In this document: piece after piece, positions 1 to 29,409 of the stretch | How the letters are laid out: every line of letters starts with the position of its first letter | How positions within the stretch are numbered: the stretch's first letter is position 1 | Source of the DNA: an uncultured Methanosarcinaceae archaeon | GTDB taxonomy: Archaea > Halobacteriota > Methanosarcinia > Methanosarcinales > Methanosarcinaceae | Length of the DNA stretch: 64,000 nt | NCBI GenBank assembly: GCA_963847185.1 | Contig: CAWJYV010000010.1 | Coordinates: 704,001 to 768,000 of the forward strand | Direction: 5' to 3' | Position numbers and translations under genes: made by a program | Notes under the pieces: model-generated | Told to the model about the DNA's origin: nothing | Database searches by the model: none | Seen by the model: the letters and a program-made list of their open reading frames with translations, nothing else

Positions 1-2265
1 AGTCTCCAGTTCCTCGTTGGTAGATTGCAGCTCCTCATTTACTGACTGCATCTCTTCGTTGGCAGATTTGAGTTCTTCATTGGAAGTCGCCAGTTCCTCA
101 TTGGAAGCTTTGAGACTTTCTTCTTTGGCCTGCAATTCCTGCTTCAACTTCAAGATTTGCACATCAACTCCCATTTCACTTTTGCAGGGGTTTTCACCGG
201 CATCTATAGCAGCGGTCCTCCCGGTTTCGATTTTCTTTGACTCCGTCAGTTCCTCAAAGGTGACCAGGAATAAGTTTGGCCAGGCAACTTCATGACCTGA
301 TTCCGCAGGTCGTACCGCCAGATTAACTATAGTGAAACCGCCATTGGTTTTGACCCGCACCCTGGGATAGAACACCGACTCTTTATTTACGGCGGCTCTG
401 TGCAGGGCCGTGGTTAACTCAGACCTCAATCCTTCTCTAGCCATGTTAAGGATGTTCAGACCAGCTTCACCCTGAGCCAGCTCTAAGTACAGGCTGGTAT
501 GGCCATGAACATAGAGGATATCGCCATGTTCGTCGACCAGAACACTGACAGGGGCATAATAATTCATTACTGCTCTCTCGGTCAGCTCGCGCAGTTGAGG
601 TCTGATTTCAGCAGGAGCGTTGCTGGAAGGTGATGAGGCCACGCTTTTCAGTTGTTGTAGGGGAAATTTCGCTATGGAAAGGAAATATTCACTGCCAACG
701 CCCTCTTTTCTTACATATAATTTTGACTTGCGATCCAGCGTATCAAAAAGATTCGTGAAATCTCCTATGGATTCGGAGGGGCCAAGAAAAAGAAATCCCC
801 CAGAATTCAATGCATAATGGAAGAGGGGAATTAGCTTCTTTTGCAGTTCCCTGTCCATATAGATCAGTAAGTTTCGACAACTGAGCAGGTCAAGTTTAGA
901 AAACGGTGGATCCTTGATAATGTCCTGCTCGGAAAAAATAACCATTTCACGGATACTGTGCTGAATAAGGTAATTGCTATCTGAATCCGGGGTGAAGAAA
1001 CGTTTAAGCCTCTTTGGAGAGATATCACTGGAAATACTGACTGGATAGAGGCCGCTACGGGCCTTTTCGATGGCTCGACTGTCAATATCAGTGGCGAAAA
1101 TCTGTACCTTAAAAGTTTGATTCAACTTTTCCATCTGCTCCTGTATCAGAATGGCTATGGAATATGCCTCCTCACCTGTAGAACAGCCGGGTACCCAGAC
1201 GCGTATTACTGAGTTAGGGTGCCTGCCGACAAAGAGGCGTGGGATAACTTTCTCCTGGAACGCTTCAAAAGTCTCAGGATTACGGAAGAAACTGGTGACG
1301 CCGATTAAGAAGTCACGAAAGAGAGATTCCACTTCAGCAGGCTTTTTCTCTAAATAACGAACATATTCATCTACATTTTCGATATTCTGGACGGCCATAC
1401 GCCGCTCGATGCGCCGGTTGATGGTATTTTGCTTGTAATGGGAGAAGTCATGACCGGTCTTGATGTATAGCAGATTGAATATCTGTTTCATTGAATCTTT
1501 TGCCCTGAGAGCTTCATGGGGCCTTTTTCCAAAAGCCTTGGCAACATAAGAAATAAGCTGAGCTGGCATTTCTTCCGGCTTCAGGACGTAATCTACCAGA
1601 CCTGTGGCAATGGCACTGAGCGGCATATTGTTGTACTCGCTGGACTCAGGAGCCTGTGCTATCACCATTCCTCCCTCAGCCTTGATCACCCGCAATCCTT
1701 CCGTGCCATCGCTGCCAGTACCCGAGAGCACAATACCGATAGATCTCTCTTGCTTTTCCTGAGCTAAGGAACGAAAGAACAAATCAATCGGCAGACGTTG
1801 GCCGCGCGGCTCAGCAGGCTTCGTCAATTGTAATGCTCCATCCTGCAGAACCATACTGCGATTAGGCGGGATGATGTAGACGCAGTCAGGCTTAACAGCC
1901 ATCTCGTCCGTGACTTCGTAAACCGGCATCTGCGTATAGCGCTCGATCAGTTCAGTAAGGATGCTCTTATGGTTTGGGTCTAAGTGTTGTATCAGGACAA
2001 AAGCTATTCCAGTCTTAGAATTGGCGGGTATGGCTGAAAAAAAAGCTTCGAATGCCGCTAGGCCACCAGCCGATGCACCGATGCCCACGATGGGAAAGTC
2101 CTCTTTTGGAAACTCATCAGAGGCTGCATCCAGAGGAGGATTTTCTTTATTAAAAGAGGTTTCCTCTAAAGAACGTGGCTGTTCTTCTTCTGACATTTGT
2201 GTTTTCCCTTTTCCTGTATTTTCCTTTTTCTGGATAATATTATCGCATCCTTTAAAACCCGTCAT
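1..2265 (-). CDS. CheB methylesterase-CheR methyltransferase-PAS-like/coiled-coil fusion protein (3' end runs off the window; start 2265 or 2196)
   Basis: Manual minus-strand translation: FPIVGIGASAGG and VLSGTGSDG (CheB), VTSFFRN / RVWVPGCSTGEEAYSIA / SCRNLLIY (CheR), then the NEELQSTNEELET coiled coil at the left edge. Missing from the ORF track because there is no stop in the window. Confidence 0.9.
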   Translation of the reverse strand, partial: MTGFKGCDNIIQKKENTGKGKTQMSEEEQPRSLEETSFNKENPPLDAASDEFPKEDFPIVGIGASAGGLAAFEAFFSAIPANSKTGIAFVLIQHLDPNHKSILTELIERYTQMPVYEVTDEMAVKPDCVYIIPPNRSMVLQDGALQLTKPAEPRGQRLPIDLFFRSLAQEKQERSIGIVLSGTGSDGTEGLRVIKAEGGMVIAQAPESSEYNNMPLSAIATGLVDYVLKPEEMPAQLISYVAKAFGKRPHEALRAKDSMKQIFNLLYIKTGHDFSHYKQNTINRRIERRMAVQNIENVDEYVRYLEKKPAEVESLFRDFLIGVTSFFRNPETFEAFQEKVIPRLFVGRHPNSVIRVWVPGCSTGEEAYSIAILIQEQMEKLNQTFKVQIFATDIDSRAIEKARSGLYPVSISSDISPKRLKRFFTPDSDSNYLIQHSIREMVIFSEQDIIKDPPFSKLDLLSCRNLLIYMDRELQKKLIPLFHYALNSGGFLFLGPSESIGDFTNLFDTLDRKSKLYVRKEGVGSEYFLSIAKFPLQQLKSVASSPSSNAPAEIRPQLRELTERAVMNYYAPVSVLVDEHGDILYVHGHTSLYLELAQGEAGLNILNMAREGLRSELTTALHRAAVNKESVFYPRVRVKTNGGFTIVNLAVRPAESGHEVAWPNLFLVTFEELTESKKIETGRTAAIDAGENPCKSEMGVDVQILKLKQELQAKEESLKASNEELATSNEELKSANEEMQSVNEELQSTNEELET

Positions 2266-2619
2266 AACCTCTTGTGAGAGCCTTATTGAGCTTTTCAATC
2301 TAGCCGTTTAAGGCTTTTTCCGAGTCAAAAATACCCTCTTTTAAAAACCAATCAGCATACGAAATAAACTCTATTTGCTTCTTTTCCAGGTAAGCGTCAA
2401 AAGAAGGAATAGCTTTTCTCAATGCGTTTTTCGCCTTCTCTACTTCAAAGGGCTGTGACGTTGACCACACACAGAATTCATTATTCTCCAGACCTGCTCT
2501 GAAGTATGGGACAATTATGTCCGCTAAGTATTATTTTGTCTGGTAGAATGGCAGAAATGTGTTTCCCAGGGCATATCTCCAATAATCTCAGTTCCAGAGA
2601 TTCTACTATTGTCTCTCAT
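2255..2619 (-). pseudogene. Decayed MEDS sensory-domain gene directly upstream of the cheB-cheR fusion
   Basis: MRDNSRISGTEIIGDMPWETHFC/FYQTK*YLADIIVPYFRAGLENNEFCVW...DWFLKEGIFD...G*IEKLNKALTRGYDG aligns with the N-terminus of the 30125 protein; one frameshift, a TAA, and a TAG at 2300-2302. Confidence 0.8.
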
Positions 2620-2889: not shown

Positions 2890-3163
2890 ATAATTAAAAA
2901 CCCATATAAAATACCTTATGACAAAAACACCGTAAGTACCTATATATTTGATTATTGACAGGGGTCAGAAATTGAATTTCTTATATATCTGATAGCTTTT
3001 GTCAAAGAATAGTTGGTAAGAATAGGTTTAATTATTGCAAAAAATTTCTGGACTTGTAAGCAAGTAGTAAGAATTGGTAGTCTCAACAGACATATATCAA
3101 ACACAAAAATTGAAAAAAGGTAAAAAGCAGATAGTATTTATAGAGCTCTCGATTCCCTCTCTA

Positions 3164-3364
3164 TTATAACGGAGCTACGCTGAGTATATCCCATCCGTAA
3201 TGTTTGATGTAGATATTGAAAAATTTCTCTGCTGAAAGCTTACTTCCACTGGAAAGAGAGTGAATGCTGTTCCACTGCTCACAGAGCTTCCAGCACGTCT
3301 CTTTTTCAGAATCCGTAAGATCGTTGTAACTCATATTTCTTAGACGGTTTGACTTGTATCTCAA
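3164..3364 (-). CDS. Small hypothetical protein (66 aa)
   Basis: ORF track; plausible composition, no recognisable family. Confidence 0.35.
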   Translation of the reverse strand: MRYKSNRLRNMSYNDLTDSEKETCWKLCEQWNSIHSLSSGSKLSAEKFFNIYIKHYGWDILSVAPL

Positions 3365-3559
3365 TTAGATATTCTCCTGATTTTTATTCCAGTCTCAATA
3401 TATCCAGGAACGGTATTGACTAAGGTTGTCTGTTCCAATGCATAGTGAAGCCGATACGTAGAGTCTAAAGGCATACTTAAGAAGGCATACTTAAGGTAAT
3501 TTGGTGGAAAACATAAGGAAAAAGAGTATTTACTAACAGAATCTCCACCGTAAGTATGT

Positions 3560-3716
3560 AAGAAGAAGCCCAAGACCACTGCATCCTTTCACTGTATCCC
3601 CCAACACAGTCTCTTCGACTATTATGCTCCCCCAAGCATTTAGTTCGAAGAAGGTTCAGTGATCCCAGGCGATTCTTTATTTGATAGATGATACCCCAAT
3701 TCTACTTCCCAACTCC
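3560..3716 (-). ncRNA. Structured sRNA candidate, copy A (three UGGGG(G)-loop hairpins)
   Basis: Paralog of 29159-29317; TATA TTTTAAATA (3747-3739) 23 nt upstream; closing stem GCCTGGGATCAC/GTGGTCTTGGGC followed by TTCTTCTT. Confidence 0.75.
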
Positions 3717-3738
3717 AGGATATACTAATAAGATAAAA

Positions 3739-3747
3739 TATTTAAAA
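3739..3747 (-). promoter_or_regulatory. Archaeal TATA box of sRNA copy A
   Basis: TTTTAAATA at the same 23-nt spacing to GGAGTTGGG as in copy B; flanking sequence is also conserved between the copies. Confidence 0.6.
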
Positions 3748-4066
3748 TAAATTATATCAAAAATTGTTTTTAAGCAAAAAATAGTTGTAGTCATTTTATT
3801 TTAATGCAATTAAAATTTTTAAAATTGAGCCTATCTCAAAACTCAAGATCGCTTGAAAGGCTCCTTGACGAATTGTACAATTTCGCAGGTTTATTTATGG
3901 GAGTAGATGTGTCCTTATAGCTCAGGAATTTGGAGCTAATAACATCAGGCTTGTATTTTTTGTATTAAATATCCCGATGGTAACCTGATCAAGAAAAAAA
4001 GATTAAAGAGAAAAAATAAATTTATGCAGATTCAAGCCTTTTTAAGGTTAAATAATAAAAAATAAA

Positions 4067-5596
4067 GTAACTATTCAGGGTATATTTAACGGCGCTCCCC
4101 TGAGCGCCGCTATAATACTCTCTAAAACAGGCAACCCATTCTTCCTGATTGTAGAAATGTACGCTCTATTTCTGCAGAAAGCTTGCGCTCCCTGTGCTGT
4201 TCTGAAAGTTCCTGATATTTTCTGCTGTAGTTTCATCATCCTGATATCTCTTTCTGCTTGATTGTTCTCAAACGGAACTTTCAAATCTGTCAGGAATCTC
4301 ATGATCTTTTCTTTGTGTTCTATAAACCTATCCAGCAGATTCCTTGCTTTGGTTTTTGGATTCTTTCCACGTTTTCCTTTCTTTTCAGGATTTAGAAACT
4401 GTGGATTTTCTTCAATTCCTTTCATGATAATAGCATCGAACCTTTCTTCTAATGATTTAATTTGCTCAAAATCCAGTTCTTTGACTTGCTCTTTGCATTC
4501 GTCAGTATACTTTTTCATCTCAGTGAACAATTCATTCATTCCTTTAGTCCACTGCTGTTTATAGTTCTCTTCAATTCCAGTAAGTTCTCTCTGTAAATGA
4601 GCATTACAGAGAGCATGATCACAGTCATAAATGTTGTAAGGTTTCCATCCGTCGTGAACTGCTACTCCCTCAAACTCAGGAAGAATACCCATAGCATTTA
4701 TTGCCTCTGATCCTCTTTTTGAGTGAGGAAAATAACAGGTGTATTTATCATTAGAAGCTACATGAAGCCAGTGTCTTTTTCCTTCGATCTTCATACCAGT
4801 TTCATCAAAATGAACAACAGGAGAATTCATTAATTTCTTTCGAATAATGTTTTCAAAACACTCTAAATTCTGGGAACATTTTTTTTCTGCTCTAATTATC
4901 GTAGCAGGACAGATTTTTATTCCCATAATATCTTCAAAAAACTCAGAAATTCGTTCATAGGGGATAAAATGATGATTTTTACAGTAAACAGCTGAAGCTA
5001 AAATATTTAGACCATACTGAACTGGATATTTTACTGATTCAGGAAAAACAGCTTTATTTATTTTTCCACAGTAAGGACAGGTCTTAATCTGACTTTTGTG
5101 TTCTGTAACAATCAGATTCACAGGAGGAATATCAAAGACCTGTCTTTTCTTATAAGCTTCAACTTCAACATTCTCAAGAGTATGGCCACATTCTTTGCAG
5201 CAACTCAAAGAAAGTTCTATTACCTAATCAGGATCATCAACCATTTCAAGAGTTGTTCCTAGATGACCCTCTTGACCTCCAGGTTTCTTACCGCTCTTTT
5301 TACGGAGACTCTTGGGATTAGGTTTCTCCTTGACAAATAAATCAGTAGAAGGAGGTCTACTACTGTTTCTGCTATTTTGATTTAAGCGAGATTCTAAGGC
5401 TATTAATCTTTCAGTGAGTTCTTTTATTTGAGATTCTAAGCTCTCAGTGTAAGTTACAATAAATTCAGGATTTGAAGTACACAGTGATAGAATCTCTTCA
5501 CGCTTCATAATACAAAATAAGAAGTCATTTTAGATCCAATTTTTCCTCGGAAAGAGGAAAAATTGTGGAACCTTAAAAAGACTCCTGAATAGTTAC
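4067..5596 (-). mobile_element. IS66-family insertion sequence (ISBst12-like single-ORF type), 1530 bp
   Basis: Terminal inverted repeats GTAACTATTCAGG (4067) / CCTGAATAGTTAC (to 5596); 8-bp target duplication AAAATAAA at 4059-4066 and 5597-5604. Confidence 0.93.
4075..5508 (-). CDS. IS66 TnpC transposase with a single in-frame TAG at 5224-5226
   Basis: The two listed ORFs (5224-5508 and 4075-5208) share a frame: EMVDDPD*VIELSLSCCKECGH. Motifs NSRNSSRPPS, CxxC zinc finger, HFDETG, HDGW, CNAHLQRE, NNQAERDIR. Confidence 0.88.
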
Positions 5597-6265
5597 AAAA
5601 TAAATTGATAATAGTTAATTAATTGTCAGATGATCACACTTTTATTCTGTTACCCAATTTAAAAGCTTGTCCTGTTTTATATTCACCCTTTATAAGTATA
5701 TTTTGATTTTGAAAAGAAAGGGCTAGAGTGGTGAAGCTCAAAAATGAAAGAAGTTATTCAATTTTTTTAACTAAATAAAATCATCTTAAGGCTTCAAAGT
5801 TAATTTAATTGGAAATAAGAGCTTACATATATTATCTAGATTATTTTTTTGGTTAAATAGTTAATTCCAGATTATTATTCATGATTTTAGTGCGATATTT
5901 TAAAAATCATAATTTGAAATTAAATAAAAGACTGAGCTTACTGTCTTAGCATCTGGTTTACTCAATTTTTCAAAAACTATTAATATTCAGAAGAAGTTAT
6001 TCTAGCGAATTTATATAATTCGTATTTATATTTCTAATTGTACTTACTGGCAATTGAAGTTAAACTGTTCTTCTCTAAATGAAAGCGTAACAAAGAAAGT
6101 AGCTTCTTAACACAACTGCCAGGAGTAAATTTAGGCTTGGGGAGATAATAAAACAATTAGGTTAGAATATTGAATTATGATCTTAGAAAGATCACTCTCC
6201 ACATGCAAAATGAGTATTAAATACTACGAATTACAGGCTATATTTAAACTATGGAGGTAAATATA

Positions 6266-6412
6266 ATGGTATGGAATTATGGTTGGAGAGATTGGGATAG
6301 GCGTAGAGGCTGGGGCTGGGCCGGATGTGGCGGCTGGGGCTGCGACGGCTGGGGCGGTCGTAGAGGTAGGTTCTGGCGTCATCGTGTAAACCGCTGGTGG
6401 GACTGGGACTGA
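6266..6412 (+). CDS. 48-aa Trp/Arg/Gly-rich small protein
   Basis: GGAGGT Shine-Dalgarno at 6253-6258; MVWNYGWRDWDRRRGWGWAGCGGWGCDGWGGRRGRFWRHRVNRWWDWD*; GC-rich island in AT-rich DNA; below the ORF track cutoff. Confidence 0.7.
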   Translation: MVWNYGWRDWDRRRGWGWAGCGGWGCDGWGGRRGRFWRHRVNRWWDWD

Positions 6413-6565
6413 GACTGTAAATAACCGTTGAACCTGTAGAATTAATTGGTATTAAAGGAAAAACATTGCAGTCATCTTTTCAATACATCGAAAAAGTCTG
6501 ACGATTGTCTTGAATCGATGGCTATTCATTTCCTATATTTTACCACTACTTCTCTTTTTTACAAT

Positions 6566-6669
6566 GGGCCTATCCCAAAACTTCATGTAATCTAATTATT
6601 GCTGCTAACATTACAATTCCCAAAAAGTAAATTTATAATTTAAATATAATATTATTTTTGAGATAGCTC
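6566..6669. mobile_element. MITE-like remnant (~104 bp)
   Basis: Ends GGGCCTATCCCAAAA ... TTTTGAGATAGCTC, same inverted-repeat family as 2761 and 3827. Confidence 0.45.
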
Positions 6670-6935
6670 AATATAATTTTTCAATTATATTGAAATTTCA
6701 AATTAGGCCAAATCTTTCATATCGGTTATAATATATATGGCCTTGTTAATATAAATTCACAGAAGATTAAGAGTAGTAGGGTTTCCTCTTAATCTATGGT
6801 TGGATCTCAGGCAGGGTTTGAGAATAGGGACTCAAAACTCTACCATTTACTTCAACTAAGCTTTTGAATCATTGGAAAATGTTGAAAGAATTGATTGTGG
6901 AAAATAAAGAAAGATGATACTGGGAAGTTACTAAC

Positions 6936-29060: not shown

Positions 29061-29127
29061 TATGTTTGATTTGAAATTTTTAATTTGAAAATATTATTTG
29101 TTTGAAAACAATTTTTTGTATAATTAA

Positions 29128-29136
29128 TTTAAAATA
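29128..29136 (+). promoter_or_regulatory. Archaeal TATA box of sRNA copy B
   Basis: TTTAAAATA 23 nt before GGAGTTGGG. Confidence 0.6.
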
Positions 29137-29158
29137 ATTTATCTTATTAGTATAGTCC

Positions 29159-29317
29159 GGAGTTGGGAAGTAGAATTGGGGGTATCGTCTACCACAAAAA
29201 GAATCGCCTGGAAGCCACAAATCCTTTTTCGAACAATTACGCTTGGGGGAGCATAAATTCGAAGAGGCTGTATTGGGGGATACAGTGAACGGATGAAGTG
29301 CTTCTGGGCTTCTTCTT
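29159..29317 (+). ncRNA. Structured sRNA candidate, copy B (three UGGGGG-loop hairpins)
   Basis: Paralog of 3560-3716 with compensatory changes; closing stem GCCTGGAAGC(C)AC/GTGCTTCTGGGC. Confidence 0.75.
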
Positions 29318-29409
29318 ATTCTTCTTATTCTTCTTATTCTTCTTATTCTTCTTATTCTTCTTATTCTTCTTATTCTTCTTATTCTCCTTATTCTTCTTAT
29401 TCTCCTTAT
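29310..29409. repeat. (TTCTTCTTA)n 9-bp microsatellite, ~11 units
   Basis: Seen directly; expands the pyrimidine tract at the sRNA 3' end. Confidence 0.9.

Follow-up and report, generated by a model that had tools for sequence, protein, structure and literature searches.

A multi-copy family of structured G-loop RNA genes in Methanosarcinaceae and a complementary C-repeat family as its candidate partner

In this study, we analysed a 64,000-nucleotide (nt) stretch of DNA from an uncultured Methanosarcinaceae archaeon (assembly GCA_963847185.1, contig CAWJYV010000010.1, positions 704,001 to 768,000; hereafter the window), in which a first-pass annotation had pointed to a duplicated non-coding RNA with several G-rich loops. 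We found that the two loci belong to a multi-copy family, referred to here as the G-loop small RNA (sRNA) genes, and that the same genome carries a second family, the C-repeat elements, whose repeats are complementary to the loops. We tentatively favour the reading that the G-loop RNAs are decoys or sponges that mimic ribosome-binding sites and titrate C-repeat RNAs, in the manner of RosA and RsaI of Firmicutes. The earlier observation was partly confirmed, and the system is larger than had been noted.

Two paralogous loci in the window

Copy A lies on the minus strand at 3559..3716 (∼157 nt; 165.4 bits and an E-value of 3.9e-31 with the covariance model R1), and its assignment is also based on its fold and on alignment; copy B lies on the plus strand at 29159..29318 (160.2 bits, E-value 4.2e-30) and is further supported by its fold and by a positional ortholog. 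The two had been described as diverged paralogs with a common start after a TATA box and a common 3′ end, and the comparison bore this out. They could be aligned over 294 columns with a mean column identity of 85%, including ∼70-90 nt upstream and ending at the CUUCUUCUU tail, and their first 12 letters, ∼22-23 nt downstream of a TATA-like box, are identical. Copy A consists of a 5′ stretch with two UGGGG-type runs, a closing stem, two hairpins with UUGGGGGA loops and the CUUCUUCUU tail. Its conserved promoter and upstream region occupies 3717..3824 (minus strand), in which the TATA-like box ends ∼22 nt before the RNA start, and homology with other copies extends to about -109. The conserved promoter region of copy B, delimited by comparison of copies, was found at 29066..29158 (plus strand).

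When folded singly, both copies formed a long closing stem around two hairpins, each with the loop UUGGGGGA. The minimum free energy was -52.6 kcal/mol for copy A (z -3.86, 0 of 200 shuffles as good) and -47.7 kcal/mol for copy B (z -2.41, 4 of 200 shuffles as good). In agreement with the earlier statement that no open reading frame (ORF) is conserved, no ORF of at least 60 amino acids (aa) covers either RNA; the sole ORF touching copy A, a 72-aa GTG frame at 3361-3579, overlaps its last 21 nt. A tandem array in the 3′ tail of copy B (29310..29409, plus strand) was reported by Tandem Repeats Finder as 11.1 copies of a 9-nt unit with 96% matches and a score of 186. This unit is expanded in copy B and single in copy A and most other members of the family.

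Size and distribution of the family

The RNA had been regarded as a duplicated one, which turned out to be an underestimate: a BLAST search with copy A identified 8 places in the genome of origin, and 13 were identified by a profile and 13 by R1, a covariance model built from an alignment of 25 sequences. Six of the 13 matches were strong, two were diverged but intact with compensatory stem changes and five were decayed or partial. By BLAST, 22 of 24 other genomes of the same genus were positive, with 2-13 matches each. R1 was searched in 121 genomes of the taxonomic family, in which g1 denotes the genus of the organism studied here and g23 a second, sister genus. Positive results were obtained for the own genome, 18 of 19 g1 genomes and all 6 g23 genomes, with 4-15 matches each, and for 0 of 95 genomes in the 14 other genera of the family. 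Two g23 genomes contain tandem arrays of six copies ∼550 nt apart, located upstream of URO-D-family genes. An ortholog of copy B occupies the corresponding position in another species (locus L033), with both flanks 91-92% identical over 1.3 kilobases (kb). A conserved TATA promoter precedes every member of the family, and the 3′ end is sharply defined; conservation stops abruptly past the 3′ tail and extends ∼70-110 nt upstream in most copies. Taken as a whole, we are highly confident that this is a genuine family of structured non-coding RNA genes.

Some indication of expression came from four RNA-library runs of four studies, all of them metatranscriptomes, which yielded contigs of 31-218 nt with 90-99% identity. 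It should be noted that the parts of window 3000-4200 without contig cover carry no information in such data. Ten of the 13 pieces fell within 3587-3678, over the two G-loop hairpins (hairpins 2 and 3). Since most of them continue into unlike sequence, these contigs stem from other family members. They weakly support expression of the G-loop family.

Covarying stems and invariant loops

The RNAalifold consensus of the 25 sequences comprised the closing stem and two hairpins, with compensatory changes in 11 of 32 consensus pairs. We also analysed covariation in 69 matches aligned to R1, bearing in mind that an alignment fitted to the model favours the model and that the sequences are related. 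In this alignment, 94.6% of cells formed standard pairs, compared with 35-51% when the partners were slid by 1-3 columns, and 21 of 32 pairs had changed on both sides. There were 131 double-change cells against 41 ± 6 in shuffles, with double changes present in every one of the five helices, and none of 500 shuffles matched the observed values on any of five measures. Despite the fitted alignment, the size of the effect is considerable, and the compensatory pairs that had been noticed in the closing stem are real.

The fold proposed earlier stood for the closing stem and the two G-loop hairpins and failed for a first hairpin around the first G-run. This hairpin was missing from the RNAalifold consensus; the positions of its 5-base-pair (bp) stem paired in 24-49 of 69 rows each, and the G-run was placed in a loop in 12 of 69 folds of the 5′ part. 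A more fitting description of the first 50 nt is a region of weak structure with one or two further UGGGG-type runs. On the other hand, the loops of the two remaining hairpins are the most conserved part of the RNA: the exact 8-mer UUGGGGGA was present in 56 of 69 copies (95 sites), while the stems vary. The number of runs of at least four G per copy had a median of 3 and a maximum of 5.

A complementary family of C-repeat elements

Apart from the antisense strands of the sRNA genes, clustering of all 980 CCCCCA sites in the own genome revealed the C-repeat family, which is non-homologous to the G-loop family. Each element has a TATA box, a stem of 9-14 bp downstream of it and, closed by this stem, an open loop of 50-75 nt with 3-5 repeats of CCCCAA or UCCCCCAA; the core UCCCCCAA and the 8-nt UUGGGGGA are exact complements. 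At least six such elements exist in the own genome, all of them outside the window on three further contigs: L078:1706-1819, L078:1985-2079, L079:1959-2069, L079:2341-2453 and L079:4335-4450 on the minus strand and L077:1297-1408 on the plus strand. Judging from their TATA boxes and closing stems, they would be transcribed. Three subtypes could be distinguished, whose closing stems differ by compensatory changes. In 17 genomes, two of the subtypes lie 0.3-2.1 kb from each other as a syntenic pair; such a pair was noted in almost all g1 and g23 genomes and also in a third genus. No C-repeat element had a match in Rfam.

The sample examined comprised 40 loci from 29 genomes, after eight other pattern hits (plain tandem repeats, a truncated locus and a duplicate) had been removed. 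In 35 of the 40 loci, a stem of at least 8 bp closed a C-rich loop that was at least 80% unpaired. Of the 40, 39 contained CCCCCAA (86 sites), and 21 contained the full 8-mer complement (43 sites). The family is unique in the own genome as a multivalent complement of the loops: nine strand-specific clusters of at least three CCCCAA within 100 nt were detected, of which five were C-repeat elements, three were the antisense of the sRNA genes and one was another locus.

The distribution among genomes was derived from a search with a triple-repeat pattern rather than a covariance model, and a control pattern read backward also matched a few genomes through simple repeats. The triple pattern was present in the own genome, 19 of 19 g1, 6 of 6 g23 and 2 of 2 g12 genomes, 1 of 11 in g22 and 1 of 3 in g25, and in 0 of 79 genomes of the other 11 genera. 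All 25 genomes with a G-loop RNA have it. The C-repeat pair, being more conserved and widespread, suits a core regulator, and the G-loop genes look like a younger, dosage-driven modulator.

Predicted pairing and G-rich ribosome-binding sites

The predicted hybrid between a G-loop and a C site had an energy of -13.6 kcal/mol per site, with predicted opening costs of ∼3.4 kcal/mol for the sRNA loops, ∼0.1 kcal/mol for the C sites and 1.8-3.6 kcal/mol for the accessible G-runs. Read by eye, the first G-run (UUGGGGU) could form a 7-position pairing with the conserved first C site.

The 3′ end of the 16S ribosomal RNA (rRNA) is ...CACCUCCU. Within 3-11 nt before likely ORF starts, we counted 174 positions of GGGGG, 316 of GGAGG, 71 of GGCGG and 51 of CCCCC, on the basis of a heuristic ORF call and with runs of six or seven G counted more than once. 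G5 is a real ribosome-binding-site variant in the own genome, and the loop 8-mer itself stands at the ribosome-binding-site position of several genes. In the acetyl-CoA decarbonylase/synthase operon, G5 sites are located at cdhB and cdhE only. A link to this enzyme through cdhA was considered and rejected, since all 12 cdhA loci inspected in g1, g23 and g12 carry the canonical GGAGG. We also observed two small paralogous gene families with a UGGGGG(U/A) ribosome-binding site, namely small glycine-rich ORFs (for example at C1:35391, C4:45326 and C4:172896) and 135-aa ORFs (for example at C1:258331, C8:722484 and C8:983444). Their site sequence suggests that they would be candidate targets of C-rich RNAs.

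A possible decoy of C-repeat RNAs

According to the mechanism that we propose, each G-loop gene would be transcribed from its own conserved TATA promoter and the transcript would end in the pyrimidine tail. Its closing stem would present two hairpins, each displaying the 8-nt UUGGGGGA, and the 5′ stretch would add one or two UGGGG-type runs. The RNA would act in trans, its G-runs base-pairing with the UCCCCCAA repeats of the C-repeat RNAs; the loop, which resembles the G5-type ribosome-binding sites of some host genes, would serve as a mimic of such a site. Titration would then relieve or buffer the effects of the C-rich RNAs on messenger RNAs (mRNAs) with G-rich ribosome-binding sites. We favour pairing and titration because invariant, site-like G-loops are carried on covarying stems, gene dosage is variable, no protein candidate was found and the complementary family is both multivalent and unique. 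In particular, titration would be in keeping with a gene dosage that is high, differs between genomes and includes tandem arrays. The first-pass annotation had offered pairing with CCCC(A) targets as one of two interpretations, and this one has gained a concrete partner.

A wider model, which we consider possible but doubtful, is an RNA-versus-RNA circuit in Methanosarcina. The C-repeat pair and additional elements would mask G5 sites, 4-15 fast-evolving G-loop genes would soak them up, and dosage together with the shared promoter would set translation of the G5 regulon. RNA2, a candidate RNA often found upstream of G-loop genes (see below), would, if real, be a third partner of this circuit with its AAUAGGG loops.

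Several points weigh against the decoy reading. Both the pairing and the expression of the C-repeat elements are predicted from sequence. The complementarity of G5 and C5 is of low complexity and could be partly coincidental, and a third partner might be bound by both families. Pairing at all eight positions would put strain on an 8-nt hairpin loop. Because the C-repeat set was chosen by the CCCCAA pattern, independent observations are limited to the fifth C and the flanking U. Co-occurrence is confounded by descent, as both families essentially mark one clade. One g1 genome (G008) and both g12 genomes have C-repeat loci without a G-loop RNA, even at E ≤ 0.1 and with laxer filters, so the partnership is not obligatory. 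In the g23 tandem copies, the loop of hairpin 2 is UAAGGGA or CUAGGGA, for which a complementary repeat was not found; the G5 run of these copies is kept in hairpin 3. The link to acetyl-CoA synthase is thin, in view of the canonical site of cdhA noted above. Finally, one RNA contig passes the predicted 3′ end by 130 nt and two cover downstream DNA only, and it is possible that the RNA contigs reflect DNA carry-over or read-through.

Alternative explanations

The other interpretation offered earlier was a protein sponge, in which the repeated G-loops would titrate an RNA-binding protein in the way that CsrB and RsmZ titrate CsrA. The likeness to CsrB, RsmY and RsmZ is that many hairpins present the same short G-rich loop and that dose matters. 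The same motif indeed recurs on several hairpins and is invariant in the 56 copies mentioned above while the stems covary, the many gene copies and tandem arrays suggest an effect of dose, and the AAUAGGG loops of RNA2 would suit a protein that reads RGGG loops. The CsrA loop consensus is A(N)GGA, and the UUGGGGGA loops end in GGA; however, each RNA has two loops and one or two runs, and the conserved part is G5. CsrA (PF02599), the partner corresponding to CsrA/RsmA of the known systems, was not found in the own genome, which is 99.8% complete, while E. coli, B. subtilis and T. maritima controls were positive. Proteins with the RRM domain bind UAGGG or GGG and were considered as loop readers; they were rejected, as RRM_1 (PF00076) occurred in 0 of 19 g1 and 0 of 6 g23 genomes, the two carrier genera, and in 1 of 121 genomes overall, which belongs to another genus. 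No neighbouring protein gene is conserved, the neighbours changing from copy to copy. What exists instead is a perfectly complementary RNA, which a protein model neither needs nor predicts. Thus, the protein-sponge interpretation gained nothing from our analysis, and we consider it unlikely.

Since GGGGG serves as a ribosome-binding site in the own genome, the loops could alternatively bind the 3′ end of 16S rRNA and thereby sequester small subunits or tune initiation. Five pairs, including a G.U pair, are possible between a loop and CACCUCCU, with a predicted energy of -8.4 kcal/mol. This value is far weaker than that of the C-repeats (-13.6 kcal/mol) or of a canonical site with the rRNA (-12.9 kcal/mol), and it leaves the conservation of the flanking U and A of the G-run unexplained, whereas the core of the C-repeats accounts for it. 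A ribosome decoy is therefore also improbable.

An ordinary regulator of mRNAs, whose G-runs pair with C-rich mRNA sites and alter translation or stability, appears quite unlikely. GcvB of enterobacteria regulates mRNAs through a G/U-rich seed, the single-stranded G-runs studied here are accessible (opening cost 1.8-3.6 kcal/mol) and the own genome offers ∼980 CCCCCA sites. However, CCCCC is not enriched before ORF starts, where its 51 positions were the lowest control, and outside the C-repeat elements there is only one other cluster of at least three CCCCAA. Near-identical loops across paralogs and two genera point rather to one conserved partner.

The copy number, which ranges from 0 to 15, the five decayed or partial copies among the 13 of the own genome and the frequent proximity of insertion sequence (IS) elements, an integrase gene or a dispersed ∼110-nt repeat would suit a selfish or decaying repeat, that is, a small promoter-bearing unit without cellular role that is spread by duplication or mobile DNA. 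Against this, compensatory changes maintain all five helices, the loops are invariant over two genera and copy B has a positional ortholog. In addition, the IS beside copy A was inserted into the unit and is not part of it, and the G-loop RNA has no match in phage and plasmid collections, for which reason a phage or plasmid origin was rejected as well. We thus regard a selfish repeat as very unlikely. A G-quadruplex core, in which three to five G-runs of one or several RNAs would stack to organise the fold or bind a planar ligand, is extremely unlikely: the repeated unit UUGGGG is a classic quadruplex former and copies have a median of three and up to five runs of at least four G, but two of the runs sit in short hairpin loops far apart in sequence and the complementary C-repeat family would be unexplained.

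Comparison with known small RNAs

G-rich sponges of C-rich sRNAs have been described in bacteria. RosA of Bacillus subtilis is a sponge of the C-rich sRNAs RoxS and FsrA and is presented (PMC8216469) as a stand-alone non-coding RNA with several accessible G-rich regions complementary to the C-rich, ribosome-binding-site-pairing regions of its partners, with titration proposed; the G-loop RNAs share these features. They differ in the absence of sequence or structure homology (no Rfam match), in their archaeal host and in having 4-15 gene copies rather than one. They also show their G-runs in identical hairpin loops, and their candidate partner has 3-5 tandem repeats in one open loop; the G-loop system is known here from sequence alone. 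RsaI (RsaOG) of Staphylococcus aureus binds the C-rich RsaG, RsaD and RsaE through two conserved G-tracks and probably titrates the three (10.1101/278127). The G-loop RNAs likewise have several G-runs complementary to C-rich small RNAs. On the other hand, RsaI is bacterial and single-copy, and its CU-rich region regulates mRNAs directly, whereas in the G-loop family no such region is evident save the pyrimidine 3′ tail. No homology to RosA or RsaOG was detected in the window at Rfam gathering scores. In common with G-rich sponges, the G-loop family has at least two accessible G-rich regions, and complementary C-rich partner elements, which are presumably transcribed, are encoded in the same genome.

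Among archaeal sRNAs, those of Methanosarcina mazei are the closest points of comparison. Of these, sRNA162 is described as a 191-nt RNA with three stem-loops, a 39-nt linker and one homolog, sRNA171, and sRNA41 is stated in a review to repress acetyl-CoA decarbonylase/synthase by masking ribosome-binding sites inside polycistronic mRNAs. The M. mazei RNAs sRNA162, sRNA41 and sRNA154 resemble the G-loop RNAs in belonging to the same genus, having their own promoters, being conserved within Methanosarcina and acting at ribosome-binding sites; however, they carry an anti-ribosome-binding-site sequence, and the G-loop family carries a site-like one. If either family has a counterpart among RNAs of the sRNA41 kind, it might be the C-repeat family rather than the G-loop family. 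The C-repeat RNAs are of a kind that could act like sRNA41, and the family may include this or another published M. mazei sRNA; this comparison concerns mode of action and not sequences.

With regard to novelty, Rfam 15 gave nothing at either locus at gathering scores, PYLIS_5 being its sole match in the window, and a permissive scan of 3450-3850 returned two hits only, both at chance level. The family did not match the Rfam model of sRNA162 (RF02792) or the models of other described archaeal sRNAs. A full-text literature search with sequence strings of the family retrieved unrelated papers only. We found no description of the G-loop family in print, in a comparison that left aside the numbered M. 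mazei sRNA listings of 2009 and supplements. The earlier impression that no described Methanosarcina sRNA matches therefore still holds within this scope (sRNA162 and sRNA171 are different), and members of the family may already bear a number in the 2009 catalogue of ∼240 M. mazei sRNAs.

To our knowledge, partners are known for very few small RNAs of archaea, and among the papers listed by our literature search none was seen to describe an archaeal sRNA as a sponge of another sRNA. If the decoy reading is true, Archaea would thereby gain their first described sponge RNA system, as far as the literature searched goes. The type of mechanism, a G-rich sponge of C-rich sRNAs, is known; new would be the domain of life and the multi-copy, loop-displayed form. 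If the pairing is real, it would help to explain how methanogens tune the translation of genes with G-rich ribosome-binding sites, and such genes include two acetyl-CoA decarbonylase/synthase cistrons, which are central to methane formation from acetate. Apart from this, the G-loop family is backed by covariation, is new to Rfam and has many members in a methanogen genus that is genetically tractable, and the partner hypothesis is specific and testable between two defined RNAs. The C-repeat elements and RNA2 are further unannotated candidate families.

Genomic neighbourhood and RNA2

The protein genes next to the G-loop genes vary by copy and include those of sensor kinases, Nramp fragments, IS200, an integrase, DUF1699, a PKD protein, PAPS reductase and URO-D. 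Upstream of copy A, an IS66-family insertion sequence of 2,847 bp occupies 3825..6671 (minus strand), with the Pfam domains DDE_Tnp_IS66, zf-IS66 and DUF6444 and terminal inverted repeats of ∼16 nt. The Rfam element PYLIS_5 (5127-5226) lies in its transposase, which is read through an in-frame TAG of the pyrrolysine type. Comparison of the breakpoints with uninterrupted copies placed the insertion at about -109 relative to copy A, so that it separates the sRNA promoter from RNA2. An IS-borne guide RNA, suggested by IS66 and IS200 as neighbours, was rejected: the IS66 element has inverted repeats of its own and interrupts the unit, and the neighbours of other copies are unrelated.

RNA2 (6762..6855, plus strand) is a conserved structured element and candidate RNA of ∼95 nt, divergent from copy A, with two hairpins that have AAUAGGG-type loops and a TATA box at ∼6730-6738. 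Its usual place is 110-310 nt upstream of a G-loop gene on the opposite strand. Among the own copies, homology reaches about -310 in five of eight, and the part belonging to copy A corresponds to window 6672-6873. For an alignment of 24 sequences, the strand opposite the sRNA gave -25.7 kcal/mol and 94 G.U pairs, compared with -13.2 kcal/mol and 13 G.U pairs for the sRNA strand, and the stems show compensatory changes. RNA2 occurs beside an sRNA gene in 21 loci of 16 genomes; a further copy is at L038:4694-4892, and solitary ones exist too, in the own genome at C1:135139, C7:743380, C10:470430 and C10:470835. No match was found in Rfam. Its AAUAGGG loops are similar to the hairpin-2 loops (UAAGGGA and CUAGGGA) of the g23 sRNA copies. 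A search for a complementary partner of the RNA2 loops was unsuccessful, as the CCCTATT clusters were the antisense of RNA2 itself and scattered pairs.

We also considered a leader or cis element of MEDS/PAS sensor kinase genes. Such kinases are encoded close to four of the eight own copies. Among 52 other loci, however, a MEDS-like gene starting on the same strand no more than 1.5 kb downstream was present in only 3, and the idea was rejected as a general rule. A dispersed repeat of ∼110 nt, resembling a miniature mobile element, was found at C1:182144-182280 (about -430 to -320 of one sRNA copy) and in at least 30 other places; contigs C1, C5, C4 and C10 are rich in it, and many of its copies are close to sRNA genes. 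Finally, window 2302-2604, just upstream of a CheB/CheR-type ORF (1-2298, minus strand), has ∼70-73% DNA identity to stretches of three other sRNA loci (L013, L067 and L033), in which the similar stretches overlap MEDS-sensor gene starts. This similarity hints at a lost or frame-shifted MEDS N-terminus in the window.

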